A stretch of DNA of 64,000 nucleotides from Candidatus Shapirobacteria bacterium. GTDB lineage: Bacteria; Patescibacteriota; Microgenomatia; UBA12405; UBA6130. Below the pieces are notes generated by a model. That model had not been told where the DNA came from and searched no databases. It saw only the letters and a list, made by a program, of their open reading frames with translations. The position numbers and the translations under genes were made by a program. The stretch is taken from assembly GCA_027039485.1 (NCBI GenBank), contig JALWDZ010000026.1, positions 1,093-65,092 on the forward strand, given 5' to 3'. Of the stretch, positions 15,598-58,665 are shown piece after piece (position 1 is the first letter of the stretch; every line of letters begins with the position of its first letter).

Positions 15598-15800
15598 AGG
15601 GGAGACAAACAAATCATAATTACCAAAATCCTAAATTCTAAACTCTAAACAATGTTCAAATGACCAAAATTCAAATGTTCAAAACATCTTTGTCATCTTT
15701 CTTTTGTTTTGGTCATTTAATCATTGGGTAATTGTTTAGGATTTGGGTCATTAGGATTTAGGATTTGTTATTCCTAGTTTCATTTTTCATTTTTCGCTTT
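15598..15800. repeat. nested-palindrome MITE/REPIN-like element, short copy without core
   Basis: Left arm caaatcataattaccaaaatcctaaa...ttcaaatgttcaaaaca is the inverted complement of right arm tgttttggtcattt...ggatttaggatttg. Same family as the copies at 19.6, 33.5, 56.9 and 58.2 kb. Confidence 0.8.
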
Positions 15801-15820
15801 TTTGTGTATAATTGAGACGC

Positions 15821-19632: not shown

Positions 19633-20020
19633 ATCTCAAATTCCAACCCCCCCTTCGGTAGGGGCAGGCAAATCCTAATTACCAAAATCCTAAACCCTAA
19701 ACAATGTTCAAATGATCAAAATTCAAATGTTCAAAACATTTCTTTCCTGTCATCCCGCCCTTTCTTATGAAAGAGCGGGATCTAGCCGAAGGTGCATGGA
19801 ATACTATATATTGCGCTCGCTCTGCTCGCTAGATTTTTACCCCGACGTTACGTCTTGGGGCTTCGCTAACGCTCAGAATGACATAGTTTAAGTGTTTTGG
19901 TCATTTGGTCATTTGGATTTTGAGCATTATTTAGGATTTAGGTCATTAGGATTTTGGATTTGTTATTCCTAGCTCCTAGTTCTTAGTTCCTAGTTCCATT
20001 TTCTAACTCCTAGACTCTTA
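19630..20020. repeat. nested-palindrome MITE/REPIN-like element with GC-rich core (core in reverse orientation)
   Basis: Arms caaatcctaattaccaaaatcctaaaccctaaac.../...ggatttaggtcattaggattttggatttg. Core gtcatcccgcc...cggggtaaaaatctagcgag...ctcagaatgac. 3' cctag-rich tract. Confidence 0.8.
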
Positions 20021-20079
20021 ATCGGCAATAAAAGATAAAATTTGCAATCTGTCAGGAAAATAAGTAGAATACAAACACT

Positions 20080-24111: not shown

Positions 24112-24609
24112 TTAAATTTTTTTTCCCAAAATCTTGTGAAGATAAAAATGATCAGACTTTTTGCCCACCGTGCCCATAAGCGATTTTTCCTGCACCTCGA
24201 GATCAAAATTGATAGTAATTTCTGGATATGATGAGCTTAACGGTTGACAGCGAGCTTGGAAATTTTTACATTTCACCGTTTTCGGAGTGAGGGCACTACT
24301 ATTAGAAGCAACGGCCCCGTTTTGGCAGCTAAAAACAGTGATCTCCCCATCTCGCCCCCAAAATGTGATTCTGTCTCGGTTAGCGCCATCGCAAAGGTCG
24401 GGGTGGTCGGCAAAACGTTGCAAGTAATCCTCTATAGCTAAAATTGCTGTACTCCCGCTTTGCCGCAACAATTTGCTGCTCAGCGCCTTATTTTGCCCTC
24501 GCAAGCTCATTACAAAAATAGCCGCTCCTACAGTTGCTAAAATAGCAAAAGTGCTAACAACAACTAAATTCTCAATCAGAGAAAAGCCCAGATGCCTTTT
24601 CATTGCCAA
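24112..24609 (-). CDS. prepilin-type minor pilin/pseudopilin
   Basis: Class III signal with cleavage motif G|FSLIE followed by a hydrophobic helix. Confidence 0.55.
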   Translation of the reverse strand: MAMKRHLGFSLIENLVVVSTFAILATVGAAIFVMSLRGQNKALSSKLLRQSGSTAILAIEDYLQRFADHPDLCDGANRDRITFWGRDGEITVFSCQNGAVASNSSALTPKTVKCKNFQARCQPLSSSYPEITINFDLEVQEKSLMGTVGKKSDHFYLHKILGKKI

Positions 24610-25010
24610 TTACTATAAACAGTAGCCATTTCTACCATGCCTCTTTTGCTCCACCAAACTTTCACCTTGACGGTCACATCTTTTTGCGTACCGCTAATAT
24701 GACAGTTTTGATAACAGGTTTGACAGGTGAAATATTTATAGCCCTGGCAATTTGTTTCTTGTTGGCATTTATTACAAAGAGTGCTCAAATTACCCCACCA
24801 AGATTGGTCTAGTTTTGCCACCCTAATATCCTCTAGCTGCTTTTTAGCTAATTGGGTGGCTAAAGTTTTTTGTCGGTTAAACCGAGCAGTGGCAATAATA
24901 AAAGTAGTTGCCGCTGCTAATCCCGAAAGCAAAAGGGCAGAAATAGAAATTACAAAAACTACTTCCAGCAAGGATTGACCTTTTTCTTTCTGGCCTATTT
25001 TTATTGACAT
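24600..25010 (-). CDS. prepilin-type pilin-like protein
   Basis: KGQSLLEVVFVISISALLL N-terminal prepilin helix, Cys-containing C-terminus. Confidence 0.5.
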   Translation of the reverse strand: MSIKIGQKEKGQSLLEVVFVISISALLLSGLAAATTFIIATARFNRQKTLATQLAKKQLEDIRVAKLDQSWWGNLSTLCNKCQQETNCQGYKYFTCQTCYQNCHISGTQKDVTVKVKVWWSKRGMVEMATVYSNWQ

Positions 25011-25570
25011 GCCTGCTCCTCGATAGTTCCCACCTTATATAAATTCACTTGGCGGCAACGGCCCTGGTAATAAAGACGAAAATAGCTTGGGTCGGTGGTG
25101 ACAGCACTTAACCGTCCTTCTAAAGCCAAAAAACGAAGCTTTTGGTTGTCGTCGCCATCACGATAAAGCCAATTACTCAAAGACTGCCATTCTTTTTCGC
25201 TAATAGTTTGCCAGGGCTGCTGGTAGTTATCGCAAACTTGGCGGTATTTCAAACTTTTATTAACGCTCCAAATTTCATAATAAGCCAATTCGTTGCATTG
25301 GCGGCTTTTTACACCGGCTCGCGCTTGACTGCGAAGCATGGCCAGATCTGTCGCCAAAACCTGAGCAGCCATATCCACCTGTTTTTTGGCCAAATAAAAG
25401 CGATAACCAGCAAAACTAAAACCTATTAGAAGACTAGCAATAGCTAAAGATACTAAAAGCTCTAAAAGGGTAAGGCCTTTCATTCTACGGCGGCGAAAGA
25501 TGATAATTGCAAATTGTGTGCCAATTATTACCACACCGAGGATTACGAGGACAACCATTGCGATTCCCAC
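25001..25570 (-). CDS. prepilin-type pilin-like protein
   Basis: MKGLTLLELLVSLAIASLLIG prepilin N-terminus. Confidence 0.55.
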   Translation of the reverse strand: MGIAMVVLVILGVVIIGTQFAIIIFRRRRMKGLTLLELLVSLAIASLLIGFSFAGYRFYLAKKQVDMAAQVLATDLAMLRSQARAGVKSRQCNELAYYEIWSVNKSLKYRQVCDNYQQPWQTISEKEWQSLSNWLYRDGDDNQKLRFLALEGRLSAVTTDPSYFRLYYQGRCRQVNLYKVGTIEEQACQ

Positions 25571-25946
25571 TAGATTCTAACGCAGCGCAAAGTACATAAT
25601 CAGCACCATTAGCAGAATAATAATAATAGTGTTGCCCCCCCTTAGGATCCTGAGGGAATTCGTGCATATAGGTAACACCATTACAAGTCCAAGCTCCTGA
25701 TGCAGGGGGTAAGCAGGCTCGACAAGTACCTCCATCGTTATAAGGATAACAGCCAATATCGCTGCGAATCATTTCCAAAACTGACCGGATTTGCTCTAAA
25801 TCCGCTTTTCTCTTATCATCCCGAGCCTTCCGGCCAGCCGATTGATAAGACACCAAGGCCACCGAAGACAGAAGAATAATAATCGTGGTTACTACCAATA
25901 ACTCGATAAAAGTAAAGCCTTTCTTCATTGAAGATTGCTCAAACAA
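25485..25946 (-). CDS. type IV pilin (tandem paralog 1)
   Basis: KKGFTFIELLVVTTIIILL, then RKARDDKRKADLEQIRSVLEMIRSD and a Cys-rich C-terminal domain. Confidence 0.7.
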   Translation of the reverse strand: MFEQSSMKKGFTFIELLVVTTIIILLSSVALVSYQSAGRKARDDKRKADLEQIRSVLEMIRSDIGCYPYNDGGTCRACLPPASGAWTCNGVTYMHEFPQDPKGGQHYYYYSANGADYVLCAALESSGNRNGCPRNPRCGNNWHTICNYHLSPP

Positions 25947-26329
25947 AAATACTTTCCTCTGCCATAATTACAACCATTATTAGTGCCAGTACTTCGGGCA
26001 TTACCATTACTGGCCTCTAGTTGCGCACAAATACAATAAGAGTCGCTTGTACACTTCCAAGAATAATTTCGGGAAGGTTTAGGATCCCTAGGCAAACCAC
26101 CAGGCAAATAAGTATTTCCCGGATTACAACCAACCGGATATCGGTCATGTACCGCCCGGTATTGCTCTAAGGCTTTTTGGACCGCTTTAATATCCTGGCG
26201 GCGGCGGGCATCTCGGGCCCGTTTTTGGGCTGCCGAGTAAGAAGTAGAAATAACAGCCATTAAAACAGCGATAATAGAGATAACTACCAACAATTCAAAG
26301 AGAGTAAAACCGGCATTCTTTTTCATCAT
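25925..26329 (-). CDS. type IV pilin (tandem paralog 2)
   Basis: NAGFTLFELLVVISIIAVLMAV, then KRARDARRRQDIKAVQKALEQYRAVHDRYP. Confidence 0.7.
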   Translation of the reverse strand: MMKKNAGFTLFELLVVISIIAVLMAVISTSYSAAQKRARDARRRQDIKAVQKALEQYRAVHDRYPVGCNPGNTYLPGGLPRDPKPSRNYSWKCTSDSYCICAQLEASNGNARSTGTNNGCNYGRGKYFCLSNLQ

Positions 26330-26811
26330 TGACTACATACATAATAACAGTTTTCGGAACAGTTTGCTTGGCAAATCGTTTCCGGACAACGCTGGCTTGA
26401 ATCGCTAATATCTACATCACCGCCATTTTCTAATTCAGCCCAGAGGCGAAAGCCATCGCCATCATTACTCACACAATAGCCGTAATGGTGGTTGCCTCCA
26501 AGAGGGTCATCAGGCACTTTGGTCATGTAGGTAGTATTGCCTTCTTGCCACTGGCTGCCAAAAAGTAGTGGGGGAGTGGGATAAGCCTGATGGTCGTTGT
26601 AATAAAGGCGAAGGCTATTTTTAATTTCCCAAAGATCTTGCTTCCGCTGGCTATCCCGGGCCCGCTGCCGAGCCGACATTAAATTAGGCAAAAGTATCCC
26701 GGCTAAAATAGCAATAATCGAGAGGACCACTAAAAGCTCAATGAGGGTAAACCCTTTTCGTCTCAGAAGGGTAAACCCTTTTTGCTTCGGAAGGGTAAAT
26801 CCTTTTTTCAT
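26326..26811 (-). CDS. type IV pilin (tandem paralog 3)
   Basis: KGFTLIELLVVLSIIAILAG, then RQRARDSQRKQDLWEIKNSLRLYYNDHQAYP. Confidence 0.7.
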   Translation of the reverse strand: MKKGFTLPKQKGFTLLRRKGFTLIELLVVLSIIAILAGILLPNLMSARQRARDSQRKQDLWEIKNSLRLYYNDHQAYPTPPLLFGSQWQEGNTTYMTKVPDDPLGGNHHYGYCVSNDGDGFRLWAELENGGDVDISDSSQRCPETICQANCSENCYYVCSQ

Positions 26812-27362
26812 GGAAGGCGAACGTTAGAACTAGTAACGCCAAAATTATATGTCTCACCGGCGCATTGGTAGCCATTATTATTATACTTATTATAATCAGG
26901 GTCATGGCTATTTTCCAAAACAGAAAAAAGTTTAAAATAGGTTCCGTCCGATTGGTAGCAATAGTGAAAACTACGCCGCGGATCCTGCGGTAACCGCTTC
27001 ATATAAACAACAGTGGCGTTATTAATATTTTCCTCGAAAGCATCTCCCCAATCTAGAACTGTATTTTGGGGACAATGGCGGTTAACAACAATTTTACCTG
27101 TCTCTTGGCCAGAACAATCAGTGCTTAAGGGGTAAGAGCGGTGATCGTTATAATACATTTCTAAGGCTCGGGCAATATTACTTAAGTCTGCCTTCCGTTG
27201 GGCATCGCGTGCTTTCTGCTGGCTAGTATGGTACTGACCAAAGCCAATGCTTGCCAAAATACCCAAAATAGCCATCACCACCAACAGTTCTATTAAAGTA
27301 AACCCTCTCCTCATTTTTTTATTGACCACAAGTGGCATCATAACAACAAGCGGTGCCCTCAC
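26808..27362 (-). CDS. type IV pilin (tandem paralog 4)
   Basis: RRGFTLIELLVVMAILGILASIG, then QKARDAQRKADLSNIARALEMYYNDHRSYP. Confidence 0.7.
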   Translation of the reverse strand: MRAPLVVMMPLVVNKKMRRGFTLIELLVVMAILGILASIGFGQYHTSQQKARDAQRKADLSNIARALEMYYNDHRSYPLSTDCSGQETGKIVVNRHCPQNTVLDWGDAFEENINNATVVYMKRLPQDPRRSFHYCYQSDGTYFKLFSVLENSHDPDYNKYNNNGYQCAGETYNFGVTSSNVRLP

Positions 27363-28026
27363 TATTACATCTATACTCTACACCAGGACAACAAGTCGAG
27401 CAAGTATCTGGCAAGCAGTAATGGTTATTTTCTCCCCCGCAAGTTGGCAAATAACATCCTGAGGGGAGGGTTGGGACAGGCGTGGGGGTAAGCATTTTTG
27501 TCGGTACAGGCGTGTTTGTTGGTTTATTGTTGACTTGCCCTGGGGGAGTAATATTGGGACTTGCTAAACCATAGGTATACTCTTGACCGTCTACTTGGCA
27601 ACCATCAGCGCAATATTCTTTTGGCCTAGGATAAGCCAAATTGGCATAAATAGCGAACCAGGTAGGACAATCGTTATCCTCAACGACAATTTTATAAGGT
27701 TGATGGCTTTGGGGATCACAGGGAACGATGTCTAACCAGGGGCGAAAATCATGGCTGTCGCAATGTTGCAACTTAACTAAATCCTCGCCATGAGGATAAC
27801 AACCATTGTCATTATAATAATCCTCCATGGCTCGTTGTAATTCGTGCAAATCGCGGCGCCGGCGGCCGTCATCAGCTTTACGAATTTGGGCTAAATAATT
27901 CATCAAAAAGATAATGGCCAAAATAACAATAATGGCCATTGCTATTAAAATTTCTACCAGAGTTACTCCTTGTTGGTTGCCTTTTGCTACCATGGCAGCA
28001 ATTTTAAAATATAATCGCCCCACCAC
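27319..28026 (-). CDS. type IV pilin-like protein with Thr/Pro linker and Cys-rich C-terminal module
   Basis: GVTLVEILIAMAIIVIL, then RKADDGRRRRDLHELQRAMEDYYNDNGCYP. Next a TPVPTKMLTPTPVPTLP linker, and an about 45 aa tail with 11 Cys. Confidence 0.6.
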   Translation of the reverse strand: MVGRLYFKIAAMVAKGNQQGVTLVEILIAMAIIVILAIIFLMNYLAQIRKADDGRRRRDLHELQRAMEDYYNDNGCYPHGEDLVKLQHCDSHDFRPWLDIVPCDPQSHQPYKIVVEDNDCPTWFAIYANLAYPRPKEYCADGCQVDGQEYTYGLASPNITPPGQVNNKPTNTPVPTKMLTPTPVPTLPSGCYLPTCGGENNHYCLPDTCSTCCPGVEYRCNSEGTACCYDATCGQ

Positions 28027-28742
28027 CAGCTAATTAGAGCGGCGGCAACTAGAAACGGCCCAAAAGCAACTGCCGTTTTCCAATGGGCTCGGCGTCGCCA
28101 GAGAAGGAACCCGGCCCACAGCCCTCCGGCCAAAAAAGCTAGATAAAACAAAAATAGGAGGCGCTGCCAACCCAACCAAAGGCCAAGGACAAAAACTAAC
28201 TTAGCATCACCCAACCCCATTCCTTTTCGACCAGTAATCAGATAAAGGAAAAGAAAGAAGAAAAGCCCGCCAAAAGCAGCTAAAAAGTCCAACCGGGGGA
28301 GGAAAAGCACCAAAACCAGCAGGGAAAGGAGAAAAACATCGGGAATAATTTGGTAATGAGCGTCAAAAAAGAAAATGGCTAAGAGAAACCAAACCAAAAG
28401 CAAATACATTCCCAGCCACGGCCAGGCTAAATTTTGCTGCCGCCACCAAACAAAAGTAGCCAAAAACAATAGACCGCCTAAAAGTTCTAGAATAAACCAC
28501 TCGGGATTTACTTTAGCCCCGCAGGTCCGGCACCGGCCGCGCAACAAAAGGAAAGATAAAAGAGGGATATTTTCCCACCAAGCTAACTGGCGATTACAAT
28601 TGTCGCAGTGGGAACGGCCCCACAAATCCAACCCTCCCTTTTGGGGATAACGACTAATTAAAACACCCAAAAAGCTCCCCCCGCTCGCCCCAAGAGCAAA
28701 CAGGAGGAGCTCCCAAAATATCATCTTTACTGGGGCACACAT
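27987..28742 (-). CDS. pilD: prepilin peptidase (A24 family)
   Basis: N-terminal Zn-binding CDNC...CRTCGA, catalytic GMGLGDAKL motif, about 7 TM. Confidence 0.8.
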   Translation of the reverse strand: MCAPVKMIFWELLLFALGASGGSFLGVLISRYPQKGGLDLWGRSHCDNCNRQLAWWENIPLLSFLLLRGRCRTCGAKVNPEWFILELLGGLLFLATFVWWRQQNLAWPWLGMYLLLVWFLLAIFFFDAHYQIIPDVFLLSLLVLVLFLPRLDFLAAFGGLFFFLFLYLITGRKGMGLGDAKLVFVLGLWLGWQRLLFLFYLAFLAGGLWAGFLLWRRRAHWKTAVAFGPFLVAAALISWWWGDYILKLLPW

Positions 28743-29383
28743 TTAAACAATGAATTTGTTCTGTCTGTCCAAGTAGCACTATCTATTTGGCTCTGACTGG
28801 TAACTGCGGTAATCTGGGTTGGCACCCCATCGGCGGTAGTGATGCCCAAATCCTTAAGCTTTGAACTTAGTTTTCTGTTTGCCTTTGCTTTAGGAATAAA
28901 GCAAACATAAACGGCTCCGCCATTGCCTGCTTCTTTAAAAAGATAGAGTCTATTCAAATCACTCCTGATATTATCGGCAAAAGGATCCTTTTGGGCAAAA
29001 GAGGCCTTTAATTCATCCGTCTTTATCAACTCTCCATAATTGCCATTAGCATCCTTGCAGCTGGAAACTTCAGCATTATAAGAACTGCCCGCACAAACAC
29101 CAAAGCCCGGCATTTTGCTCGTTAAACCCAAAACCTGGGACTCGTCAGCTCCATTGCCTTCGCCCCAAACTTCATCATCCCACGGATAATATTCTTGGGA
29201 AGCATAGTACCGCTCCAAGGCGCTCAAAACTTCGGCGGCATCATTTTGAAATTTCGCATCCCGAGCCTTATTGGTTTGTTCTACTGGATTTAAAGTAGAA
29301 AGAACCGCCACCGACAAAATAGCAATTAAGGAAATAACAATCAATAACTCAACTAGAGTAAAACCTTGTTTCAGTTGTTTCAT
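28727..29383 (-). CDS. pilA: type IV pilin, candidate major pilin (immediately downstream of pilC)
   Basis: KQGFTLVELLIVISLIAILSVAVL, then NKARDAKFQNDAAEVLSALERYYAS, 218 aa. Confidence 0.65.
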   Translation of the reverse strand: MKQLKQGFTLVELLIVISLIAILSVAVLSTLNPVEQTNKARDAKFQNDAAEVLSALERYYASQEYYPWDDEVWGEGNGADESQVLGLTSKMPGFGVCAGSSYNAEVSSCKDANGNYGELIKTDELKASFAQKDPFADNIRSDLNRLYLFKEAGNGGAVYVCFIPKAKANRKLSSKLKDLGITTADGVPTQITAVTSQSQIDSATWTDRTNSLFKCVPQ

Positions 29384-31694: not shown

Positions 31695-33479
31695 CTAATA
31701 TTTAGCCACCCGGAGAACTTCCTCCACGGTGGTAATACCCTCTAACGCCTTCAAATAGCCATCCTGCATCATCGTTACCATGCCCTCCTTTACAGCCGCT
31801 TTTTTAATTTCCTCGGCCGGCGCTTGTTTAAGGATAAGCTGCATAATTGCATTAGTCACCGGCAAAGTCTCAAAAATCCCAATTCGACCGTAATAGCCGG
31901 TAAAGTTGCACCCCTGGCAGCCTTTGCCGCGGTAAAGCTTTGGTTGGTCACCGGCTTTGGGGGGCCAAAGCGGGCCAAGCACTTTTTTCATTCCTTCAAC
32001 CACTTTTTCTGGCGGCTGGTAACTTTCCTTACAGTCATTATGGATCCGGCGGACAATCCGTTGGGCAACCACTGCGTTCAAAGCAGAAACTAGCAAAAAG
32101 GGCTCAACCCCCATATCAATTAACCGTGGCGCAGCTCCGGCAGCATCGTTAGTATGTAGTGTCGAAAAAACCAAGTGGCCAGTAAGGGCTGCCTCAACCG
32201 CCAGTTCAGCCGTCTCTTTATCGCGAATCTCGCCAACCATAATAATATCCGGATCCTGGCGCAAAAACGAACGCAGGGCCGACGCAAAAGTAAGCCCCGC
32301 CTGGGGATTTACCTGGACCTGGTTAACCCCTTTGATGTGGTATTCAACCGGATCTTCGATAGTCATCACGTTAACTTTGGTAGTGTTAATCTTAGAAAGA
32401 ACTGAATAAAGAGTAGTCGTTTTCCCGGCTCCAGTTGGACCGCAGACCACAATCATTCCGTGGGGGCGGCTAATGGCCTCTTGCAAATCGCGGAGTGTTT
32501 TCCCCCGCAAACCTAATTCTGGCAAGTCGGGAATTTTTTGCGTTTTCTTCAAAAGCCGCATAACTACCTTTTCGCCATAGACAGTCGGTGCTGTCGAAAC
32601 CCGGACGTCGATTTCCTGCCCATCACTGCGAAAAGTAAAGCGCCCATCCTGGGGCACCCGCTTTTCATCGATTTTCATATCGGCCAAAATTTTAATTCGG
32701 GAAACAACGGCATCATGGATCCGCCGCGGCAAAATAAGTTTCTCTTGCAAAATGCCGTCAATGCGGTAACGGACCCGGGTATCGCCCTCTTGGGGTTCAA
32801 TATGAATATCCGAAGCCCGGGCCTTGACCGCAAATTGCAAAATTGTCGAAACAACCTTGGCAATTGGCGCCTCGTGGATAATATTCTCCAGATGGTTAAC
32901 ATCCAAGACATTCTTTTGATAAGTTTTAGCCGTTTCCCCTAGGGCCTTAGTCACCTCGGCGGTAATTTCCTGGTTATAATGTTCGTCGATTGTCTCCTGG
33001 ATAAGCTTTTTATCAGCCAGGTAAGGCTCTATTTTTAAGCCTGTTTTCTTTTCCAAAAACTCCACCGTCTCCAAATCTAAAGGATTGGCCATAGCCACCG
33101 CCAGCTTTTTCTCTTTAGGGTCATAACGAAAGGGCACCACCAGATAATACTCGGCCACGCTTCGGGGAATAAAAGTAATGCTTTGGGGATCGAAAGCAAT
33201 TTCTTCTAAATCAGCATAGGGAACGCCCAAAAACTTCGCCTTAGCAGCTAGCAATTTCTTGGTGGGGATTAGATTTTCTTCATGAATAATATCTTCCACA
33301 TTCTTGCCGGTTTGAATTGCCTTTAGTTGAATATTTTTTACCTGGGCTGGCGAGAGCAGCTTCTCCTGGGCCAGAACGTCCAAAAGCGAGTGGGGCAGTT
33401 TTGTTTCTTCCATCACTTCCATTATAAACAAAATAAATCCCAAATCACAAGCACCCTGCCCCGACGGACGTCGGGGCAA
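31695..33479 (-). CDS. pilB: type IV pilus assembly ATPase PilB (GspE family)
   Basis: N-terminal GSPII domain, Walker A GPTGAGKTTT, tetracysteine CQGC..., 594 aa. Confidence 0.9.
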   Translation of the reverse strand: MPRRPSGQGACDLGFILFIMEVMEETKLPHSLLDVLAQEKLLSPAQVKNIQLKAIQTGKNVEDIIHEENLIPTKKLLAAKAKFLGVPYADLEEIAFDPQSITFIPRSVAEYYLVVPFRYDPKEKKLAVAMANPLDLETVEFLEKKTGLKIEPYLADKKLIQETIDEHYNQEITAEVTKALGETAKTYQKNVLDVNHLENIIHEAPIAKVVSTILQFAVKARASDIHIEPQEGDTRVRYRIDGILQEKLILPRRIHDAVVSRIKILADMKIDEKRVPQDGRFTFRSDGQEIDVRVSTAPTVYGEKVVMRLLKKTQKIPDLPELGLRGKTLRDLQEAISRPHGMIVVCGPTGAGKTTTLYSVLSKINTTKVNVMTIEDPVEYHIKGVNQVQVNPQAGLTFASALRSFLRQDPDIIMVGEIRDKETAELAVEAALTGHLVFSTLHTNDAAGAAPRLIDMGVEPFLLVSALNAVVAQRIVRRIHNDCKESYQPPEKVVEGMKKVLGPLWPPKAGDQPKLYRGKGCQGCNFTGYYGRIGIFETLPVTNAIMQLILKQAPAEEIKKAAVKEGMVTMMQDGYLKALEGITTVEEVLRVAKY

Positions 33480-33930
33480 ATTCTAATTACCAAAATCCTA
33501 ATCCGCCAGCTGGCGGACTAAACAAATTCAAATGACCAAAATTCAAATGCTCAAAAACATTGAAACTGTGTCATTCTGAGCGTTAGCGAAGCCCCAGGAC
33601 GTTCCGCCAGCTGGCAGAGTCGGGGTAAAAATCTAGCGAAGCGCATTAATCCCACACCTGACTAACTCTCATGCGCTCGCTCCGCTCGCTAGATCTTTAC
33701 CCCTACCGAAGGTGGATTTATTCCACCGAAGGGGGGCTTCGTCGCTTCGCTCCTCAGGATGACAAGGGGAGATGTCTTTTGTTTTGGTCATTTGATCATT
33801 AGGTAATTTGGTTATTGTTTAGGATTTGGGTCATTAGGATTTAGGATTTTGCTCAACCTAGTTCCTAGCTCCATTTGAACTTTTCACTTTCCCCTTCTTT
33901 CTCACTTTTCACTTTTCACTTAAACTTTTC
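33478..33930. repeat. nested-palindrome MITE/REPIN-like element, longest copy, core present as an inverted duplication
   Basis: Arms aaattctaattaccaaaatcctaatc.../...ggatttgggtcattaggatttaggatttt. Internal 230-nt imperfect hairpin built from two inverted copies of gtcatYctgag...gaagcccc...ggggtaaaRatctagcga. 3' cctag/cactttt tract. Confidence 0.8.
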
Positions 33931-37096: not shown

Positions 37097-38307
37097 TGGG
37101 ATAAATCCCGATAGATCCGGTAAAGTGCTCGGGCACTTTTAGACCAGGTGTAATATTTTAGTATCAACCGCCGCCCGGCCTGGCCAATCCTCCTTTGCTG
37201 TTCCTTATTGCGCAAAAGTTTTACTGCCAGATCAATAATTTCCTGGTCATTTTTGCCCACCAAAACATCGCGTCCCCATTTGGCCCGGATGCCTTCAATA
37301 CCCTCAGGAGTAGTCACTATCGGCAACCCTAAAGACATGGCTTCGAAGAACTTGGTCCGGCTTCCCCCGCCGCTAGCCATCGGCGCCAAAAGCAACCAAC
37401 TGCGACGGTACGTTTGGCTTACATCTTCCACCTCTCCGGCCCAAACATCTTTCTGCCCCGGTAAGAAACCTTTTCGGTAAAGAAAATCGCGAGCATACTT
37501 ACCGGCTACTAAGAGGCGAGCCTCGGGCACCGCTTGTTTCACCCGCGGCCAAATATCCAGCAGCAATTTCCTGGCCCCTTCTTTGTTTTGCAGCCACTTA
37601 AAATTAGCTACTCCAAAAAGCACCGTTGGCTGGCGATACTTAGGCAATGGCTTTAACTTGAGAAAGCGCTCATTTACCCCGTTAGGCACAATATCCACCG
37701 CCCGCCGGCTTAGTTTCTCCATAATCTTCTGGTCTTCTTCAGAAACGGCAGCCAAACGGTTAGCCCGCCGCCAATAATGTACCTCCCAAAACTTCAATTT
37801 GGCAACATCAAAATAAAACGGTAATTTTAATGGCCAGCGCCACCACGGTAAAGAAGCAACATAATGTTGGTAAACAGCAAACTCAATTGTTTGATCCACC
37901 AGCAAAACCGGCGTCTTAGTTTTGGGAATATTAGGCATCAGGTAAAAGCATTCCACGTGGATCAAATCATATTTTTCCCTTTGCAATTCCTGGCGCAAAG
38001 CCTGCTTTAAAGCCGGGGAAAAATAATTGGCCACCAAAAAAGGATAGGGGCTAAAGCCGGTAAAAAGAATTTTGCGCCACTGCCAGGTTTTTCCCCGCGA
38101 AAACGTCCGCACCCGGCGGCATAATTTGTTTAATTCTTGGATATTTTGCCCCGTTTGGTCAGGCAAAAGAAAACTAAAAAGGGTGATGTCCACATCCTTG
38201 GCCAAATGTTTTAAGAGATAGAAAGACCGGGTTTGCCCTCCCGAAAACGGCGGGTAAGGCAAATACGGGGTTATCATTAAAACCTTCAACTTTTTCCTTT
38301 TTGGCAT
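37093..38307 (-). CDS. glycosyltransferase family 1
   Basis: FEAMSLGLPIVTTPEGIEGI motif, GT-B architecture. Confidence 0.65.
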   Translation of the reverse strand: MPKRKKLKVLMITPYLPYPPFSGGQTRSFYLLKHLAKDVDITLFSFLLPDQTGQNIQELNKLCRRVRTFSRGKTWQWRKILFTGFSPYPFLVANYFSPALKQALRQELQREKYDLIHVECFYLMPNIPKTKTPVLLVDQTIEFAVYQHYVASLPWWRWPLKLPFYFDVAKLKFWEVHYWRRANRLAAVSEEDQKIMEKLSRRAVDIVPNGVNERFLKLKPLPKYRQPTVLFGVANFKWLQNKEGARKLLLDIWPRVKQAVPEARLLVAGKYARDFLYRKGFLPGQKDVWAGEVEDVSQTYRRSWLLLAPMASGGGSRTKFFEAMSLGLPIVTTPEGIEGIRAKWGRDVLVGKNDQEIIDLAVKLLRNKEQQRRIGQAGRRLILKYYTWSKSARALYRIYRDLSQ

Positions 38308-48479: not shown

Positions 48480-49411
48480 AGCAGCTCTTGGCGCAATGGC
48501 TGTTGTTTAATTGCCCGTCGCAGCCAGCGCCATTGGGCAATAGTTGCTAAAGTAACCCGCGGGCGAATGAGGATATTTTTTTGCACGAAATTATACATTT
48601 GTCCCAAGAAATAGGGTATTTGCCACCAAGGGCGGGCTTTAATAATTGTTTTCTCCAACGCCAAAAGAACTTCCTGCTGCCGCCTTTCCCGCGCCAAATC
48701 ATTGCCTTCTTGGGGATTACTGCTTTTACGGGAACGCATATATTCCAAAGCTCGCTGGCCGCTAAAATGGTGCCAACCCTTTTGGAAACTTACCGTCCGG
48801 ACACCATGGCTGCCATCATCGCGGGGAAAATGGCTATCCCGAAAGCTCCTTTCCACATAAATATCTATTCCCCCCAAAAAATCAATCAAATCGCGCACAT
48901 TAGCCATCGTTAACAGGGCAACTTGGTCGATCTTCTGACCGGTTAGCCGCTCCACTGTCGTTTTCAACAAGCCAAAGGGATGTTGGGGATCGCGCCGGCG
49001 GCCATAATAATAAAGGGCGTTTATTTTTGTCCGCTGGTCCTCCAGCCATAAATCGCGGGGAAGAGAAAAAAGCAAGCTTTTACCCGTCTTGGTATTAACG
49101 GTGACCAAAAGAATGGTATCGGTCAAAAGGGTCGGGTTATCGGGCCGCTGGTCAAGGCCTAGCAACAAAAACGAATGGTATTGGTTTCTGTCAGGATGCT
49201 GCCAGCCCCATTTTAAATCATGATAGAGCGCCGCCGGCTTTAGATGTGCTCCCCGGGCAAACTGCCAACCGGCCCAAAAGGAAAGGAAAACAGCAAAAAA
49301 AATAACTACCCCAACAACCAATAAACTAAAAATGGCCAACTTTTTAGCAATTTGAACCAGAAAAGGGATTACTTTTTGGCCAACCATGATAAGGGTTTTC
49401 TTGTTCGCCAT
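48347..49411 (-). CDS. LytR-CpsA-Psr (LCP) family protein
   Basis: N-terminal TM then LGLDQRPDNPTLLTDTILLVTVN...SLPRDLW, typical LCP core. Confidence 0.65.
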   Translation of the reverse strand: MANKKTLIMVGQKVIPFLVQIAKKLAIFSLLVVGVVIFFAVFLSFWAGWQFARGAHLKPAALYHDLKWGWQHPDRNQYHSFLLLGLDQRPDNPTLLTDTILLVTVNTKTGKSLLFSLPRDLWLEDQRTKINALYYYGRRRDPQHPFGLLKTTVERLTGQKIDQVALLTMANVRDLIDFLGGIDIYVERSFRDSHFPRDDGSHGVRTVSFQKGWHHFSGQRALEYMRSRKSSNPQEGNDLARERRQQEVLLALEKTIIKARPWWQIPYFLGQMYNFVQKNILIRPRVTLATIAQWRWLRRAIKQQPLRQELLWQGDAAILETGIDPYYGSWILQPRRGDYGLIKQFFQTQLRHLQ

Positions 49412-50538
49412 ATCGTGGGTAATTCTAACAAATTCTTAGCTAACCACCAAAACGTTGCCGGCCATAATTTCAGCGGCGTAGTTTTCAAAAGATAACTAAA
49501 ATTGCGCCCCCGCTCTAAGAGGATCGGCCACCAATAACGGCGCCAGGTTCGAGAAGGATAGTTCTTGATTAGCAGCCACCACCAATTGCGCACCGTCATC
49601 CGCTGGCGCAAATTTCCCATCTTCCGGCTCGTGGCTCCACCCTGGTGATAAGCTACCAACTGGGGCAAAAAAAGCATCTGCCAGCCCCTTTCCCGCAACC
49701 GCAGAGCCAGATCGACATCTTCTAAATAAGCAAAAAAGCGTTCATCAAAACCGCCAGCAGCCAAAAAAGCGTCCCGGCGATAAACTACCGCCGCCCCATT
49801 AAGGCCATCCGCCAAATGCGGTTTTTTTAGCCAGGCTTTAAATTTTTTTCGTGCCTCCGACCATTTCCAACCATTGGCAATATTTTCCGCCCGACCCGGC
49901 AAAAAATACCGTAACCCTAAACTTTCAACCCGGCGGCCAGTTCGATCTAGCACTATTCCGCCAAAGGCGGCCACCCGCTGTTGCCGGTATTGCCATAGGA
50001 TTAGCTCTAAATTCGCCAGCCAATTATCAGCCAGGCGCACATCATCATTCAAGACCAAAAGATAATCGCCCCGGGCCGCCTTTGCCCCCTGATTCACCGC
50101 TCTCGCAAAACCAAGGTTTGTTTTATTAAAAATAGTTTTGATTACTATGCCAGGGGGTATGGAGAAGACGCTATCATCATGTTGGTTGTTCTCACCTTCA
50201 TTGTTGTTCCATGATTTTCTTCTCTCTTTTTTGTTTGGAATTTGAGGTTTGTAATTTTGATATTGTTTGTAATTTGCCTGCCTGCGCAGGCAGGGTGCTT
50301 GGTGCTTGGAATTTAATTCCTTGAGGAATTCTTTACTGCCATCATGAGAATTGTTATCAATGATGATTATTTCTAGGTTTTGTATTTGGTCATTTAAATT
50401 TTGATATTGTTTGTAATTTGCCTGCCTGCGCAGGCAGGGGATTTGGGATTTGGAATTTACAGCCCTAAAAAGGCTGTTGAGGCATTCTTGGAGAAGGTCT
50501 CGTCCCTGGAAATGGGGAATAATAACCGAAAGTTTCAT
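49369..50538 (-). CDS. glycosyltransferase family 2 carrying two in-frame repeat-derived insertions
   Basis: GT2 N-terminus (LSVIIPHF...CLNSL) and core (EIIIIDNNSHDGS, NLGFARAVNQG, ED motif). Two low-complexity inserts encode SKSQIPCLRRQANYKQYQN... Confidence 0.7.
   Translation of the reverse strand: MKLSVIIPHFQGRDLLQECLNSLFRAVNSKSQIPCLRRQANYKQYQNLNDQIQNLEIIIIDNNSHDGSKEFLKELNSKHQAPCLRRQANYKQYQNYKPQIPNKKERRKSWNNNEGENNQHDDSVFSIPPGIVIKTIFNKTNLGFARAVNQGAKAARGDYLLVLNDDVRLADNWLANLELILWQYRQQRVAAFGGIVLDRTGRRVESLGLRYFLPGRAENIANGWKWSEARKKFKAWLKKPHLADGLNGAAVVYRRDAFLAAGGFDERFFAYLEDVDLALRLRERGWQMLFLPQLVAYHQGGATSRKMGNLRQRMTVRNWWWLLIKNYPSRTWRRYWWPILLERGRNFSYLLKTTPLKLWPATFWWLAKNLLELPTIWRTRKPLSWLAKK
50140..50460. 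repeat. repeat-element-derived segment inside the GT2 gene (two copies of the palindrome CCTGCCTGCGCAGGCAGG plus ggatttgg k-mers)
   Basis: tttgatattgtttgtaatttgcctgcctgcgcaggcagg occurs twice (about 50268 and 50414). Near-identical to 53624..53900. Confidence 0.75.
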
Positions 50539-51632: not shown

Positions 51633-52949
51633 TTGCCTATGCTTGCCAATATTTTCATCAATTTCTTGGCCCAAGGTTATCTTTTCCTCATTTCGTTTTT
51701 TACCCTGCCAGCCATCCTCCACTATCTCGGCAAGGAACAATTCGGCTTTTTAGCCTTAGCCGCCGCTCTCCTCAATTACGCCACTACTTTCGACTTTGGC
51801 TTTGGGGCCGCCCTTACCCAACGGGTAGCTTACCTCCACTCCCAAAACCGCCGCCAGCAACTAAAAACCACCATCCAAACTGGCTTTTTAACCTACACTC
51901 TCCTAGCCGCCGCCATTATCATTTCCCTTGATCTTTTCGCCCAGCCTATCCTTCACCTCTTTAACCTTTCACCCCAACTTTTTGGCCAGGCCCAGAAAAT
52001 CATGCCCCTCATCGCCCTTAACATCGGCCTTTACTTCCCCACCATTTTTGCCGCCAGCATTTTCCAGGCCGAAAACCATTTCTGGCGCTATAATTTGCGC
52101 ACTTTTATCGTTGGCACTGCCAATACCCTCGGCGTTTTTTTCCTCGCTAGCCGCCACTTTCCCCTCATTGCCATTTTCCAACTCCAAACCGCCGCCTTAC
52201 TTCTTACTTTAGCCCTCGATTTCTGGCTCCTCCGCTCCTACCTGGCTTATCCCCACTTTTCCCGCCGCCATTTTCTTCAACTCGGCCGCTTCGCCCTTTT
52301 TAAATTTCTGAGCAACACCGCCGGCCAAATCAGCACCCAATTCCCCAAATTTTTCCTTGCTTCCCTGGTCAATGTCGCCAGCGTCAGTTATTTCACCGTC
52401 CCTTTTTCTCTCATCCAAAAACTAGGGGTCATCCTTTCCCAAATCTACATCGTTTTCTTCCCCAAGATAGCCCACCTCAACGGCCGCCAGCAATCGGCAA
52501 AAATCCGCCGCCTTTTCCAACGGGGCCAACTTCTGGTCGCCATCATTACCATCCCTGCTATTGCCTTGGGCTTCTGGCTTGGGCCACTTTTCCTCAACTG
52601 GTGGCTGAAAGATCCCCAATTTGTCCGGCAAATCTTGCCCGTCTTTAATATTCTTCTCGTTTACTTTCTGGTCCACGCTTTCACGGCCATTCCGGTGGCT
52701 ATTCTTGAAGGCATTAACCAACCCCAACTGCCGGCTCTTTTAGCTTGGATTAATGCCGCTATCACCATCGGCGGCGGTTATTTCCTTATCAAACGCCTAG
52801 CCGCTCCCGGCGCTGCTCTCACTCTTCTCGGTTACACCCTTGTCACCGGACCTTCGGTTATCCTTCTCGCCTGGCGCAGCTTAAAAATCCCAAAGCCAGC
52901 GCCAAAGCCGCCACTGGACCTTAGCTCTAGTCAACCGCTCCCGCAATAA
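51633..52949 (+). CDS. oligosaccharide flippase (Wzx/MOP superfamily) polysaccharide biosynthesis protein
   Basis: 438 aa, about 12-14 TM, typical Wzx organisation. Confidence 0.6.
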   Translation: MPMLANIFINFLAQGYLFLISFFTLPAILHYLGKEQFGFLALAAALLNYATTFDFGFGAALTQRVAYLHSQNRRQQLKTTIQTGFLTYTLLAAAIIISLDLFAQPILHLFNLSPQLFGQAQKIMPLIALNIGLYFPTIFAASIFQAENHFWRYNLRTFIVGTANTLGVFFLASRHFPLIAIFQLQTAALLLTLALDFWLLRSYLAYPHFSRRHFLQLGRFALFKFLSNTAGQISTQFPKFFLASLVNVASVSYFTVPFSLIQKLGVILSQIYIVFFPKIAHLNGRQQSAKIRRLFQRGQLLVAIITIPAIALGFWLGPLFLNWWLKDPQFVRQILPVFNILLVYFLVHAFTAIPVAILEGINQPQLPALLAWINAAITIGGGYFLIKRLAAPGAALTLLGYTLVTGPSVILLAWRSLKIPKPAPKPPLDLSSSQPLPQ

Positions 52950-53987
52950 TTGGGCAAAAGCATTGCCCAAAAAAGTAAAACTTAAAACAAGACGATAAAG
53001 CCAAAGCGGGTAATGGTGCTTTCGTAAAAATAGGAAAAGCGAGGCAAAATAGCGCCGGTAAAATTGCCACCGCTCTTTCATTTTCCAATTTTTCCAACTC
53101 CCACCGCCAAAGTGAATTATTTCCGCCGCTGGCACCACCACCAACTTACCCAATCCTAATTTTTTAACTCGGTACGACCAGTCAACATCTTCAAAAAAGA
53201 AAAAATAATCCTCGTCAAGGCCTTTTGTTTTTTGCCAAACTGTCCGCCGAGCCAGCAAAGCTGCCCCCGGCAATTGTTCAACTGGCGTTGGCATTTTGCT
53301 CACCTGGCTAAAGACCAGCCACTTTAGCGGCGTGGCTGTCACCAGCCAGCGGCCGGCCAGGCTATGGTAAAACGCCATTTGCCAAAGGTTAGGAAAACGC
53401 ATATAGTAGCGCTGCTGAAAACTGCCGTCGGGGTTTAATAACCTAGGAGACACGGCGGCCACATCGCCATGTTTTTCTAAATAGCCCACCATCTTCTCTA
53501 AGGCTCCCTTCTTAACAATAGTATCTGAATTAAGAAGAAGGATATATTTGCCTCTGGCAATTCTTATTCCTTGGTTGTTAGCCTTTGCAAAACCAAGGTT
53601 TGTTTTATTAAAGATAGTTTTAATGGCTATGCCCTGGGGTATAGAAAAAATACCACTGTGTCGGTTATTTTCACTTTCACTGTCATTCTGAGATTTTCTT
53701 CTTTTCTTTTTGTTTAGAATTTGAGATTTGGGATTTGGAATTTGGGATTTGGAATTTAATTCCTTGAGGAATTCTTTACTGCCATCATGAGAATTATTAT
53801 CAATGATGATTATTTCCATGTTTTGAATTTGGTCATTTAAATTTTGATATTGTTTGTAATTTCCCTGCCTGCGCAGGCAGGGAATTTGGGATTTGGAATT
53901 TACAGCCTCAAAAAGGCTGTTGAGGCATTGTTGGAGGAGATCCTTAGTGTTGTAATTGACAATGATAATGGAGAGGAGAGGACTCAT
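52881..53987 (-). CDS. glycosyltransferase family 2 carrying in-frame repeat-derived insertions (paralog of 49369..50538)
   Basis: LSIIIVNYNTKDLLQQCLNSL, EIIIIDNNSHDGS, NLGFAKANNQG, DEDYFFFFEDVDW. Inserts encode SKSQIPCLRRQGNYKQYQN... and SQIPNPKSQILNKKKRRKS... Confidence 0.7.
   Translation of the reverse strand: MSPLLSIIIVNYNTKDLLQQCLNSLFEAVNSKSQIPCLRRQGNYKQYQNLNDQIQNMEIIIIDNNSHDGSKEFLKELNSKSQIPNPKSQILNKKKRRKSQNDSESENNRHSGIFSIPQGIAIKTIFNKTNLGFAKANNQGIRIARGKYILLLNSDTIVKKGALEKMVGYLEKHGDVAAVSPRLLNPDGSFQQRYYMRFPNLWQMAFYHSLAGRWLVTATPLKWLVFSQVSKMPTPVEQLPGAALLARRTVWQKTKGLDEDYFFFFEDVDWSYRVKKLGLGKLVVVPAAEIIHFGGGSWKNWKMKERWQFYRRYFASLFLFLRKHHYPLWLYRLVLSFTFLGNAFAQLLRERLTRAKVQWRLWRWLWDF
53624..53900. 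repeat. repeat-element-derived segment inside the GT2 gene (palindrome CCTGCCTGCGCAGGCAGG, tandem gggatttggaattt)
   Basis: Near-identical at nucleotide level to the 50140..50460 segment (e.g. gaatttaattccttgaggaattctttactgccatcatgagaatt). Confidence 0.75.
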
Positions 53988-56803: not shown

Positions 56804-56889
56804 ATTTCTATTATAGCAGGCTGACGCCAACTACCAACAAACAACTGACCAACAACAGAAAGTAATTCCATTTACCTCGTCATGCTGAA

Positions 56890-57250
56890 ACCTACCTGTG
56901 CAGGCAGGCAATACTAAAATCCTAAATTCAAAATCCTAAACTATAAACAAATTCAAATGACCAAAATCCAAATGTTCTAAACATTTCTTTTTCTTTGCCT
57001 TTTTCTTTTGTTTTGGTCATTTGGTTATTTAATCATTTGGTAATTGTTTAGGATTTGGGTCATTAGGATTTAGGATTTGTTTGTGATTTGGTGTTTGGGA
57101 TTTGGAATTTGGTGCTTTTTTGACCTAGTTCCTCCAACCTAGCTCTTAGTTCCACTTTAACTTCTTTTCCACTTTACACTTGAATTTTTCACTTCCTTAG
57201 CCCTTCGCCCTTAGCTCTTAGCCCCTTCTTACCTAGTTCCTAGTTCCAAT
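56890..57250. repeat. nested-palindrome MITE/REPIN-like element (no GC core; degenerate CCTG...CAGG palindrome at left end)
   Basis: Arms ...aaaatcctaaattcaaaatcctaaactataaac.../...ggatttgggtcattaggatttaggatttg. Contains gtgtttgggatttggaatttgg, the same k-mers as the GT inserts. Long cctagttcctag tract. Confidence 0.8.
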
Positions 57251-58246
57251 CACCTTCTTCAGCACTCTGCCCAATTTAACCGGACTATGGCGGAGGCGCA
57301 TATTTTGCTTTTCAATAATGGCCACATCGGCAACCAAAGGTTTAGGTTGTAATTTTCTATCCACTTTAATTGGCTGGGAGTGCTCATAGCGATAAAGCCG
57401 CCATACTTTAGCCAACTGTTTCTTTGGTAAAGCCTGCCAATCAGGCATAATAACAACATCAAAAGGCCGATTCACCCGCAAATAACGGCGGAAAATTGCT
57501 AGATAATCTCGCTGGGTGCCCCACCGGCTTTCGTTAGCTACTGTCATCAAATTAGCAATCAAAATTTTCTTGGCTCGGCTTTGGCGGTAAGCAGCCGCCA
57601 TGCCCCGTGGCAAAAAATTAGCCAGCAATGACCCGTACAAACTGCCCGGGCCGATAATGATAACCTGGCTTTCTTTAATCGCCTGAATAGCCTCCGGATT
57701 TGCTCGTACCCGTGGCTCCAGCCAAATCTTCTTTACCCGGTCGGTTGACATCCGCTGCAAATCCAAATAATGTTCGCCGCGGTACTCTTGGCCGCTTAAA
57801 GTCCGAAAAGCCAAATCTGCCGGCTCGGTGGCTACCGGCACTACCCGCCCGGCTAACTTGACACCCATTAGCTCCTGAAAAAATTTGTCGGCCTGATTAA
57901 TATCCCCCAATTTCTCCACCAAAAAGCGAAAGAAACTGTTGCCAAAATTTCTTCCCCGCCCATCTCGATAGCGCAACATTTCTTGCCACAGCTTTTTCCT
58001 TTTTCCATCCCGCCAAAGAGAAATCAATGCCCGCCAATAATCAGAAAACGCTAAAAGCTGCCCTCTCTCATCGGTGCGCATCCGCCCAGTATCACCGCCG
58101 CTATCAAAAGTAGTTACCACCGAAACAATATTCTGGAACCCAGCCCGAAGGAGGGCCCTGTTAGTAACCGGCATGCCCGACCCGCCGCCGACAGTACAAA
58201 TCCTCATTACTCCATTATAACGCCCCAATGCTAAATAAAATCTCAA
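57233..58246 (-). CDS. yvcK: YvcK/CofD-like gluconeogenesis-factor family protein (UPF0052)
   Basis: MRICTVGGGSGMP...VTTFDSGGDTGRMR signature. The true start is probably the internal MRICTVGGG. Confidence 0.75.
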   Translation of the reverse strand: MRFYLALGRYNGVMRICTVGGGSGMPVTNRALLRAGFQNIVSVVTTFDSGGDTGRMRTDERGQLLAFSDYWRALISLWRDGKRKKLWQEMLRYRDGRGRNFGNSFFRFLVEKLGDINQADKFFQELMGVKLAGRVVPVATEPADLAFRTLSGQEYRGEHYLDLQRMSTDRVKKIWLEPRVRANPEAIQAIKESQVIIIGPGSLYGSLLANFLPRGMAAAYRQSRAKKILIANLMTVANESRWGTQRDYLAIFRRYLRVNRPFDVVIMPDWQALPKKQLAKVWRLYRYEHSQPIKVDRKLQPKPLVADVAIIEKQNMRLRHSPVKLGRVLKKVIGTRN

Positions 58247-58665
58247 ACAAATCCTAAATCCTAATGACCCAAATCCTAAACCTGCCTGCGCAGGCAGGTA
58301 AATCTAAAATTCAAATGACCAAATGACCGAAACCTTGTCACCCTGAACGAAGCTGAAGGCGGAGTGAAGCCCCAGCACGTTCCGCCAGCCGGCGGAGTCG
58401 GGGTAAAGATCTAGCCGAAGGCGCATGGAAAAGGATATTAGGGTATCAGGTTAATTTTCTTTTTTCTTTTTCTTTCTTTCTCTGTTCTTCTGATCTCTGA
58501 TTCTCTTTCCCTGATTACCTAATTCTTCCTGATATTCTACATTATTTAATCCCCTTTTCTTTACTGAGTTCTAAGTTCTGAATATCTAAATGTTTAGAAC
58601 ATTTGGATTTTGGTCATTTGATATTGTTTAGAATTTAGGATTTAGGATTTTGAATTTATCTTCTT
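58245..58665. repeat. nested-palindrome MITE/REPIN-like element with perfect palindrome and GC-rich core
   Basis: caaatcctaaatcctaatgacccaaatcctaaacctgcctgcgcaggcaggtaaatc... Core gtcaccctgaacgaagctgaaggcggagtgaagcccc...cggggtaaagatctagccgaaggcgcatgg. Right arm ...ggattttggtcatttgatattgtttagaatttaggatttaggatttt. Confidence 0.8.

Follow-up and report, generated by a model that had tools for sequence, protein, structure and literature searches.

Five loci in a 64,000-nt window of DNA from a Candidatus Shapirobacteria bacterium (contig JALWDZ010000026.1; "the window" denotes this whole stretch) are filled by related palindromes that we read, with a probability of roughly 0.6, as selfish, non-autonomous DNA repeats that fold on themselves, a lineage-specific family of Microgenomates in the candidate phyla radiation (CPR). 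The family is dispersed in many copies, its members have been gained, lost and rearranged between related genomes, other repeats are nested at their hairpin tips, the inner segment is inverted in some copies, and the sequence is conserved above the neutral level. Its units survive only in permissive places, namely in spacers upstream of or between promoters, as half-units in loops of GT2 glycosyltransferases, and, in relatives, at helix tips of 23S rRNA. CPR genomes have a reputation for being streamlined and for containing few repeats; in these 64 kb essentially all intergenic DNA of any size belongs to one repeat system. The window has five non-coding gaps above 400 nt, each of them filled by an element, and every other gap is shorter than about 210 nt. 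Palindromic repeats between genes, "selfish" in-frame insertions in enzymes and rRNA gene insertions are usually treated apart, and the family connects all three; its interest rests on the nesting, on the three kinds of host site and on the unexplained conservation of its sequence.

The search profile was built from 15 copies of a different genome only, the metagenome-assembled genome (MAG) "Candidatus Microgenomates bacterium S016_97" (GCA_015485895.1; 224 kb of its loci served for comparison), because circularity was to be avoided. In an nhmmer search of the 64-kb window this profile recovered all five elements with E-values from 7e-45 to 5e-11, so that the five copies proposed in an earlier note on this DNA stand. 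They lie on the plus strand at 15602-15768 (copy 1), 19648-20020 (copy 2), 33457-33921 (copy 3, the focal copy) and 56879-57250 (copy 4), and in the opposite orientation, on the minus strand, at 58246-58658 (copy 5). Copy lengths range from 167 to 410 nt, and none of the five contains an open reading frame (ORF). The window and the fetched loci together gave 77 non-overlapping profile matches, 37 of them full length; a weak match at 37886-37935 was rejected as ordinary coding sequence.

A 23-mer of the arm, allowing up to three mismatches, occurs 8 times in the window and 0 times in 100 shuffles. An exact-match scan with one genome per species placed this 23-mer at 38 loci, 34 of which belong to S016_97; single loci were found in a Shapirobacteria MAG, in MAG AUK113 and in two contigs binned elsewhere. 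Searches of phage records, plasmid records and viral contigs returned no similar sequence, and phage or plasmid carriage was rejected. The S016_97 loci often lie near contig ends, both ends of one Logan contig fall in or near these repeats, and a Logan contig ends inside copy 5. It should be noted that this coincidence with short-read assembly breaks bears on the completeness and binning of MAGs.

In its basic form the unit is an imperfect palindrome, AT-rich and about 170 bp long, with, on either strand, a CA-rich arm at the 5' side and a TG-rich arm at the 3' side; the short form is a left/right doublet with a spacer of about 20 nt. The arms, 60-90 nt long, pair along their whole length and fold beyond shuffled sequence, in agreement with the long hairpin proposed earlier. 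As RNA, copy 3 folds with z-scores of -8.4 (plus strand) and -7.7 (minus strand), and the DNA folds of copies 1 and 4 have z = -5.3 and z = -6.9, with no shuffle folding as well. The arms had also been taken for simple terminal inverted repeats, and this description fails: Tandem Repeats Finder resolves arms and tails into 7-8-nt tandem units (TTTGGTCA, TTTAGAA, ATTTGGG, TTCCTAG, CTTTTCA and CCTTAGC), and in 51 copies the tandem runs form ordered mirror-image layers around the centre, with an extent that varies on each side. In 9 of 42 copies about 80 nt at the centre run in the opposite orientation to the outer arms, the outcome that recombination between the two arms would give. The commonest arm 9-mer, AAATCCTAA, occurs 22 times and never outside the repeat zones; it is therefore not a dispersed uptake motif, and a role as a DNA-uptake signal was rejected.

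Two further repeats are nested in this unit. The second is a GC-rich core of 135-200 bp (TGTCATYCTGAG...CTCAGGATGACA), itself a nested palindrome and always located at the hairpin tip. Copies 1 and 4 are intact hairpins of about 170 nt, whereas copies 2, 3 and 5 are split by the core, whose presence in these three and absence from the other two the earlier note had claimed; in all three composite copies the nhmmer alignment places the split at positions 94-112 of the arm model, which is the tip. The third repeat consists of GC mini hairpins of 16-22 nt with 4-nt loops (TCCGCCAGCTGGCGGA, CCTGCCTGCGCAGGCAGG, CCCCGACGnnnCGTCGGGG), which sit at the boundaries of tandem units in positions that differ from copy to copy.

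Copy 1, the best match (E 7e-45, model positions 3-182), consists of a left arm at about 15605-15687, a T/C-rich loop with TTGTCATC, a right arm at 15706-15768 and a weak tail at 15769-15800, and is placed between the start of the PBP1A gene and the promoter of tRNA-Tyr. In copy 4 the intact short form occupies 56903-57080 (full-length match, E 3.6e-43); on its left are a GTCATGCTGA fragment and the hairpin CCTACCTGTGCAGGCAGG, and on its right the outer layers GTTTGTGATTTGGTG..., CCTAGTTCC, CTTTTCCAC and CCTTAGC, reaching 57250. Copy 2 begins with the flanking mini hairpin CCCCTTCGGTAGGGG, followed by the left arm (19661-19750), a GC-rich palindromic core at about 19748-19883 (TGTCATCC...AGAATGACA), the right arm (19893-19963) and a TTCCTAG tail (19964-20020), the arm matches being split at model positions 104/111. 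Its neighbour, a protein of 251 aa, has no match in Pfam or NCBIfam, which leaves the label "NlpC/P60" given to it before unconfirmed.

In the focal copy 3, a flanking hairpin (33457-33478) precedes the left arm (33473-33561; arm match from 33474), within which the mini hairpin TCCGCCAGCTGGCGGA is nested at 33502-33517; then follow the core at 33569-33764 (TGTCATTCTGAG...CTCAGGATGACA), the right arm at 33775-33849, and tails of CCTAGTTCC and CTTTTCA units at 33850-33921. Copy 5 comprises a right arm (58247-58333) with the nested hairpin ACCTGCCTGCGCAGGCAGGT at 58280-58299, half a core from 58337 to about 58430, a T/C-rich tract at about 58440-58590 and a left arm at 58588-58658 (arm match to 58656). 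The CCTAGTTCC-type tail, said to end all copies, is clear in copies 2, 3 and 4 and present as one unit in copy 1, and the ends of copy 5 have none.

The same anatomy bears on the notion of a guide-RNA array or of an artefact. CPR bacteria do have TIGR arrays, of which palindromic stems are a part (PMC12045711), and one weak match to CRISPR-DR46 (E 0.7) was seen. Tandem 36-nt units with variable spacers are missing, the tandem period is 7-8 nt, each copy stands alone as a dispersed palindrome, and none of 44 scanned window ORFs encodes a Nop-domain (Tas) or Cas protein; a TIGR array was rejected on these grounds. An assembly artefact is contradicted by the recurrence of the same elements in the independent NCBI, ENA and Logan assemblies, and chance by the arm 23-mer, which never appears in shuffled sequence. 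For practical purposes these explanations are refuted.

The arms are similar across genomes that have otherwise diverged. The ruvA-ruvC DNA of the window and of S016_97 is 81-88% identical, and the RecG proteins are 76% identical with an identity of 46% at third codon positions, which is near saturation. Mean arm identity is 0.87-0.90, alike within the window, within S016_97 and between both. The best match of each window arm lies at a non-orthologous locus of S016_97 (identity 0.91-0.99, the best pairs reaching 96-99%), and the positional ortholog is outside the four closest matches listed for every one of them. Judged by this comparison, arm conservation is far above the neutral expectation set by the RecG third positions. 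Against near-saturated synonymous sites, such conservation points to copying from a conserved master, to exchange between genomes or to selection on the sequence; an active process or a constraint is thus indicated, and it is directly testable.

Occupancy of orthologous sites differs between related genomes. In S016_97 the arm element is missing at two of the five sites (copies 1 and 4) and present at three (copies 2, 3 and 5). At the site of copy 4, between ruvA and yvcK, S016_97 carries a different palindrome of 155 nt; at that of copy 1, upstream of tRNA-Tyr, it has other sequence, with the promoter TTTGTGTATAATTGAGA conserved. The occupied sites differ in form: at the copy 3 site S016_97 has the short form with the same flanking hairpins and without the core (locus L003), at the copy 5 site a plain short form, into whose window counterpart the half core and the T/C-rich tract are inserted, and at the copy 2 site a rearranged, truncated unit with a different mini hairpin and no core. 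Two more distant syntenic relatives (RecG 56% and 61%) gave no arm matches in 22 kb and 10 kb, and the sites covered in them, those of copies 1 and 2, are short and empty. The comparison of orthologous sites called for in the earlier note thus yielded unoccupied sites in both sets of genomes, and presence at identical positions in all relatives, which would have spoken for ancient structured regions, was not found. The differences therefore mark the elements as lineage-specific, gained, lost and remodelled, and not as ancient fixed regulatory regions.

A metagenome scan based on PilB returned relatives of 42-74% identity, none of them comparable site by site at copy 3. One of these, a Hainich groundwater contig (locus L060, PilB 58%), carries a 135-nt arm unit in another gap, the one that separates pilB from its neighbour. 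In the same contig, at 4760-4980, the pilB promoter region of this more distant relative is flanked by inverted arrays of a different short unit, AACAAATTAACAAAGTGACAA, and of its complement; to surround promoters with layered inverted tandem repeats may be habitual in these genomes. S016_97 itself has at least two further palindromic families, CAATAGAAAGA...GACTCTARCARCAAT (L030 1040-1190; L120 18480-18620) and inverted doublets of the type GTCATSCTGA-hairpin-TTCAGGATCTTCAG (L002, L005, L008, L016, L017); they are intergenic, and among their positions are the two sites at which arm elements stand in the window instead. Among the PilB relatives of 55-59% identity (L040-L061), 564 query residues extend over about 2500 nt, some 800 nt more than in the window, which suggests an intein or another insertion inside their pilB genes.

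Units are also found inside rRNA genes. The window has no rRNA gene; Rfam annotation places arm units inside the 23S rRNA genes of S016_97 and AUK113. An alignment of these two genes reveals in the former (L009 1-3563) five arm-type insertions, 151-254 nt long, each in place of a helix tip and bracketed by GC clamp hairpins. The AUK113 gene (L020 1495-4734) has one arm insertion inside it, the helix-tip placement being scored for the five S016_97 insertions only; at the tips that match these, AUK113 carries a recurring mini hairpin, CTCCGACGTTACGTCGGAG. In all, at least 10 helix tips of its 23S rRNA are capped by near-identical CTCCGACGTTACGTCGGAG hairpins. The 23S gene of S016_97 is about 1.2 kb longer through the five arm-type insertions and one apparently GIY-YIG-like protein-coding insertion. 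The rRNA genes of CPR bacteria are rich in insertions, those described being mostly intron-like or homing-endonuclease-encoding, and palindromes or hairpins are unmentioned in the survey (PMC11270868).

The third kind of host site is protein-coding. Two arm-like half-units, each with a CCTGCCTGCGCAGGCAGG hairpin, lie at 50213-50460 on the minus strand, in frame in the GT2 ORF 49369-50538, where they are translated into the peptides NSKSQIPCLRRQANYKQYQNLNDQIQN and NSKHQAPCLRRQANYKQYQNYKPQIPNKK...; a paralogous GT2 ORF (52881-53987, minus strand) contains two more in-frame half-units at 53692-53902, again each with a CCTGCCTGCGCAGGCAGG hairpin (E 0.003). The half-units split the match to the catalytic domain in both paralogues, and the reading frame stays open. 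When they are deleted, the Pfam GT2 score rises from 70.2 to 88.6 bits in the first ORF and from 85.3 to 108.6 bits in the second, and in each case the match becomes one uninterrupted alignment that starts at profile position 1. The GT2 protein had no match in a sequence search of the PDB. The statement that no protein is encoded thus holds for the five copies and fails for these related half-units. Only the CA-rich half-unit appears in the sense direction in genes, as expected if selection removes TG-rich copies, which are rich in stop and hydrophobic codons.

Promoter-like hexamer pairs of the sigma-70 type were located nearest tRNA-Tyr (15784-15812), rpmF (20041-20070), pilB (33450-33421) and ruvA (56837-56810), in every case outside the arms, between the element and the gene. 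Promoter- and terminator-like sites show no clear excess over shuffled sequence; the largest departure, in the 15.5-20.2 kb region, was 10 promoter-like sites versus 5.9 +/- 1.9. A role of the elements as promoter donors finds no support in the position of the hexamer pairs or in the tRNA-Tyr promoter, which is conserved in S016_97 without an element, and the elements do not appear to carry the promoters of their neighbours. Copies 1, 2 and 5 lie between divergent promoters and are probably not transcribed; copies 3 and 4 lie between a stop codon and the next promoter, where a role as terminator or insulator is possible but unsupported. Several TATAAT-type -10 boxes fall on or within a few bases of start codons or of the RNA start (33421-33430, 58225-58240, 56810-56820, 15807-15812), TTATAATGG being the sequence seen at pilB and yvcK; such positions suggest transcripts whose leaders are absent or very short.

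Tests based on RNA structure gave little. Rfam searches of the elements at gathering and permissive thresholds returned tRNAs and noise only, with no family match. RNAalifold gave a weak consensus for the arms, with few compensatory pairs and an apparent excess of U:G pairs, and this excess was accompanied by no strand preference in RNA folding energy (13 of 30 copies, p = 0.85). Selection at the RNA level could therefore not be shown.

The sole transposase-type gene among the scanned ORFs, a set of 44 searched against Pfam without the pilin cluster, pilC, pilT and a few short ORFs, encodes a protein like the REP-associated tyrosine transposases (RAYT, of the Y1/HUH type) and lies at 61986-62594 on the minus strand (NCBIfam REP_Tyr_transpos, E 1.4e-15, below the family cutoff; Pfam Y1_Tnp, 24.4 bits). 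It has more than 3200 homologues. The gene contains an in-frame inverted pair of hairpins, GTAG-GGGCGA...TCGCCC and GGGCGA...TCGCCC-CTAC, at 62238-62259 and 62314-62335, and homologues of 56-62% protein identity keep this pair at the DNA level (L124 979-1038 and 1281-1302; L126 455-516; L127 3493-3590), with a third copy just past the stop codon in L124. The hairpins look like the enzyme's own repetitive extragenic palindrome (REP) embedded in its gene. REP units proper are GC-rich, imperfectly palindromic and 20-40 nt long, and the tetranucleotide GTAG is conserved at their 5' side. The ORFs flanking the gene (60598-61989 and 62603-64000, minus strand) hold different GC mini hairpins, GCTCGCnnnnGCGAGC and GTCCCGCTTGCGGGAC, in AT-rich spacers, a family with at least 6 in-frame repeats at 61598-61700 and 62986-64000 and the peptide repeat NMLAGASDTNRNMPRKRDDTSPAGD. 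At 24112-29383 lies a run of small pilin-like ORFs, about 10 in number, which have a common conserved N-terminal segment, and one of them contains a 24-nt tandem repeat at 26744-26817.

Whether this protein mobilises the family, as a true system of REP doublets (REPINs) in which the RAYT-like protein copies the arm doublets or the nested GC mini hairpins, has to be judged on these data, and we regard it as improbable; the protein is a candidate helper only. It is true that the gene is present in the window and that its homologues carry the JGI name "REP element-mobilizing transposase RayT", that the arm elements are inverted doublets without target-site duplications (TSDs), that conservation across species and sites shared at near-saturated divergence match what is reported for REPINs, and that in L127 a homologue of 62% identity and an arm-plus-core element are 1.8 kb apart. 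The defining relation between enzyme and repeat nevertheless fails, because the GTAG hairpins are not in the arms and the gene is flanked by another hairpin family. The GTAG hairpins occur only in or next to RAYT genes and are missing from the rest of the window and from the 224 kb of S016_97 loci. Moreover, the arms are AT-rich arrays of about 75 nt and not GC-rich REPs of 20-40 nt, and the fetched S016_97 loci contain no RAYT homologue. Slightly less probable still is a classical miniature inverted-repeat transposable element (MITE), that is, a deletion derivative of an insertion sequence (IS) moved via terminal inverted repeats (TIRs) by a DDE transposase. Prokaryotic MITEs as generally described (PMC10969869) do resemble the elements in their small size, AT-richness and palindromic, non-coding sequence, and in lying between genes in multiple copies. 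The check for TSDs at the copy boundaries found none: direct repeats in the flanks average 1.52 nt versus 1.60 +/- 0.15 nt in a re-paired control, a comparison that, with such fuzzy ends, leaves room for TSDs of 2-3 nt. The ends are tandem heptamers, the whole element is palindromic and lacks the layout of short TIRs around a core, an ORF between paired arms was found neither in the window nor in the S016_97 loci, and none of the scanned ORFs encodes a DDE transposase. The MITE/REPIN-like mobile element of the earlier note therefore survives as a description of multi-copy, non-coding nested palindromes with variable occupancy, and not as regards TSDs, a partner transposase or a cognate RAYT.

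The alternative with the most in its favour is that the host has selected the elements as DNA or RNA, as insulators that separate transcription units, working as cruciform supercoil sinks where promoters diverge, as bidirectional terminators or as RNase III processing sites; we consider it unlikely, if less so than either transposon class. Every large intergenic gap is filled, always just upstream of a promoter-like site, three of five sites are occupied in both genomes, the elements are strongly folded and far better conserved than neutral sites, and an RNase III gene lies in the syntenic locus. Against this, two of the five orthologous sites have no element, with the promoter intact where the flank can be aligned (copy 1), and none was found in the loci of the more distant syntenic relatives. 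Units inside rRNA and inside the catalytic domain of an enzyme would be senseless as insulators, three copies between divergent promoters are probably untranscribed, promoter- and terminator-like sites are no commoner than in shuffles, and the positional ortholog is not among the four closest matches listed for any window arm. Several observations also weigh against selfish repeats, the reading we prefer. No transposition event was directly observed; TSDs are lacking, no autonomous partner was found, and no ORF lies between paired arms. No clean filled/empty junction could be read at occupied versus unoccupied sites, because the whole spacer differs between the genomes. Joint occupancy of three sites despite near-saturated synonymous positions, and arms conserved more strongly than junk would be, also fit a selected function, and the few compensatory changes and the folds without strand preference make the structure-based tests uninformative.

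As selfish repeats, the elements would spread by copying from a conserved master sequence, and gene conversion or recombination between copies and between arms would homogenise the units and flip their centre. The lack of TSDs and the preference for hairpin tips fit a movement as folded single-stranded DNA by an enzyme of the HUH/Y1 type acting in trans; this is our preferred guess for the mechanism, and a doubtful one. More generally, it is conceivable, though we would not bet on it, that the self-folding unit of about 170 nt with GC hairpins serves across a CPR clade as a general-purpose insert, one family occupying spacers, protein loops and 23S tips alike, that it explains part of the non-intron insertions in CPR rRNA, and that a dedicated, tip-targeting mechanism of copying or selection, without target duplications, keeps it near-identical between species.

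In the literature searched, no account of palindromic repeats or MITEs from CPR bacteria or Microgenomates was found. The family was compared with systems known from elsewhere. Like MITEs such as Correia, ERIC, BOX/RUP and QMITE, the arm elements combine small size, AT-richness, lack of coding capacity, a stable hairpin, intergenic positions near promoters and presence/absence polymorphism. They differ in having neither TSDs nor an identifiable parent IS, in a palindrome that is layered over its whole length, in an invertible centre, and in secondary elements that insert systematically at the tip. With REPIN-RAYT systems they share inverted doublets without TSDs, persistence in related genomes with sites occupied in both, a conserved master and the presence of a RAYT-like gene; unlike REPINs, they are AT-rich tandem arrays whose nested mini hairpins have no GTAG, and their arms do not flank the RAYT-like gene.

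Rickettsia palindromic elements (RPEs) measure about 100-170 bp, belong to a small genome and occur both between genes and in frame within unrelated genes, where they are tolerated as translated peptide segments (PMC10969869). The size of the palindrome, the small genome and the combination of intergenic copies with in-frame translated insertions (in the window, in two GT2 paralogues) recall them, and this likeness is one of features, with no relation in sequence expected and no claim of membership. The host phylum is different, genes of the window contain only CA-rich half-units, and the arm units have traits of their own: a build of tandem heptamers, nesting with two other repeat types and, in relatives, a place at 23S helix tips. 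The intervening sequences (IVSs) of 23S rRNA, which sit in helices 25 and 45 (PMC4990558), resemble the S016_97 arm-type insertions, which are extended stem-loops replacing helix tips; unlike IVSs and the described CPR rRNA insertions, the arm unit is also a genome-wide intergenic repeat. Taken together, these comparisons make the family a demonstrable member of none of the RPEs, REPINs, IVSs or strict MITEs; by analogy, it would seem to work most like RPEs in its in-frame insertions, like REPINs in its population behaviour, and like rRNA IVSs in its stem-loops at helix tips.

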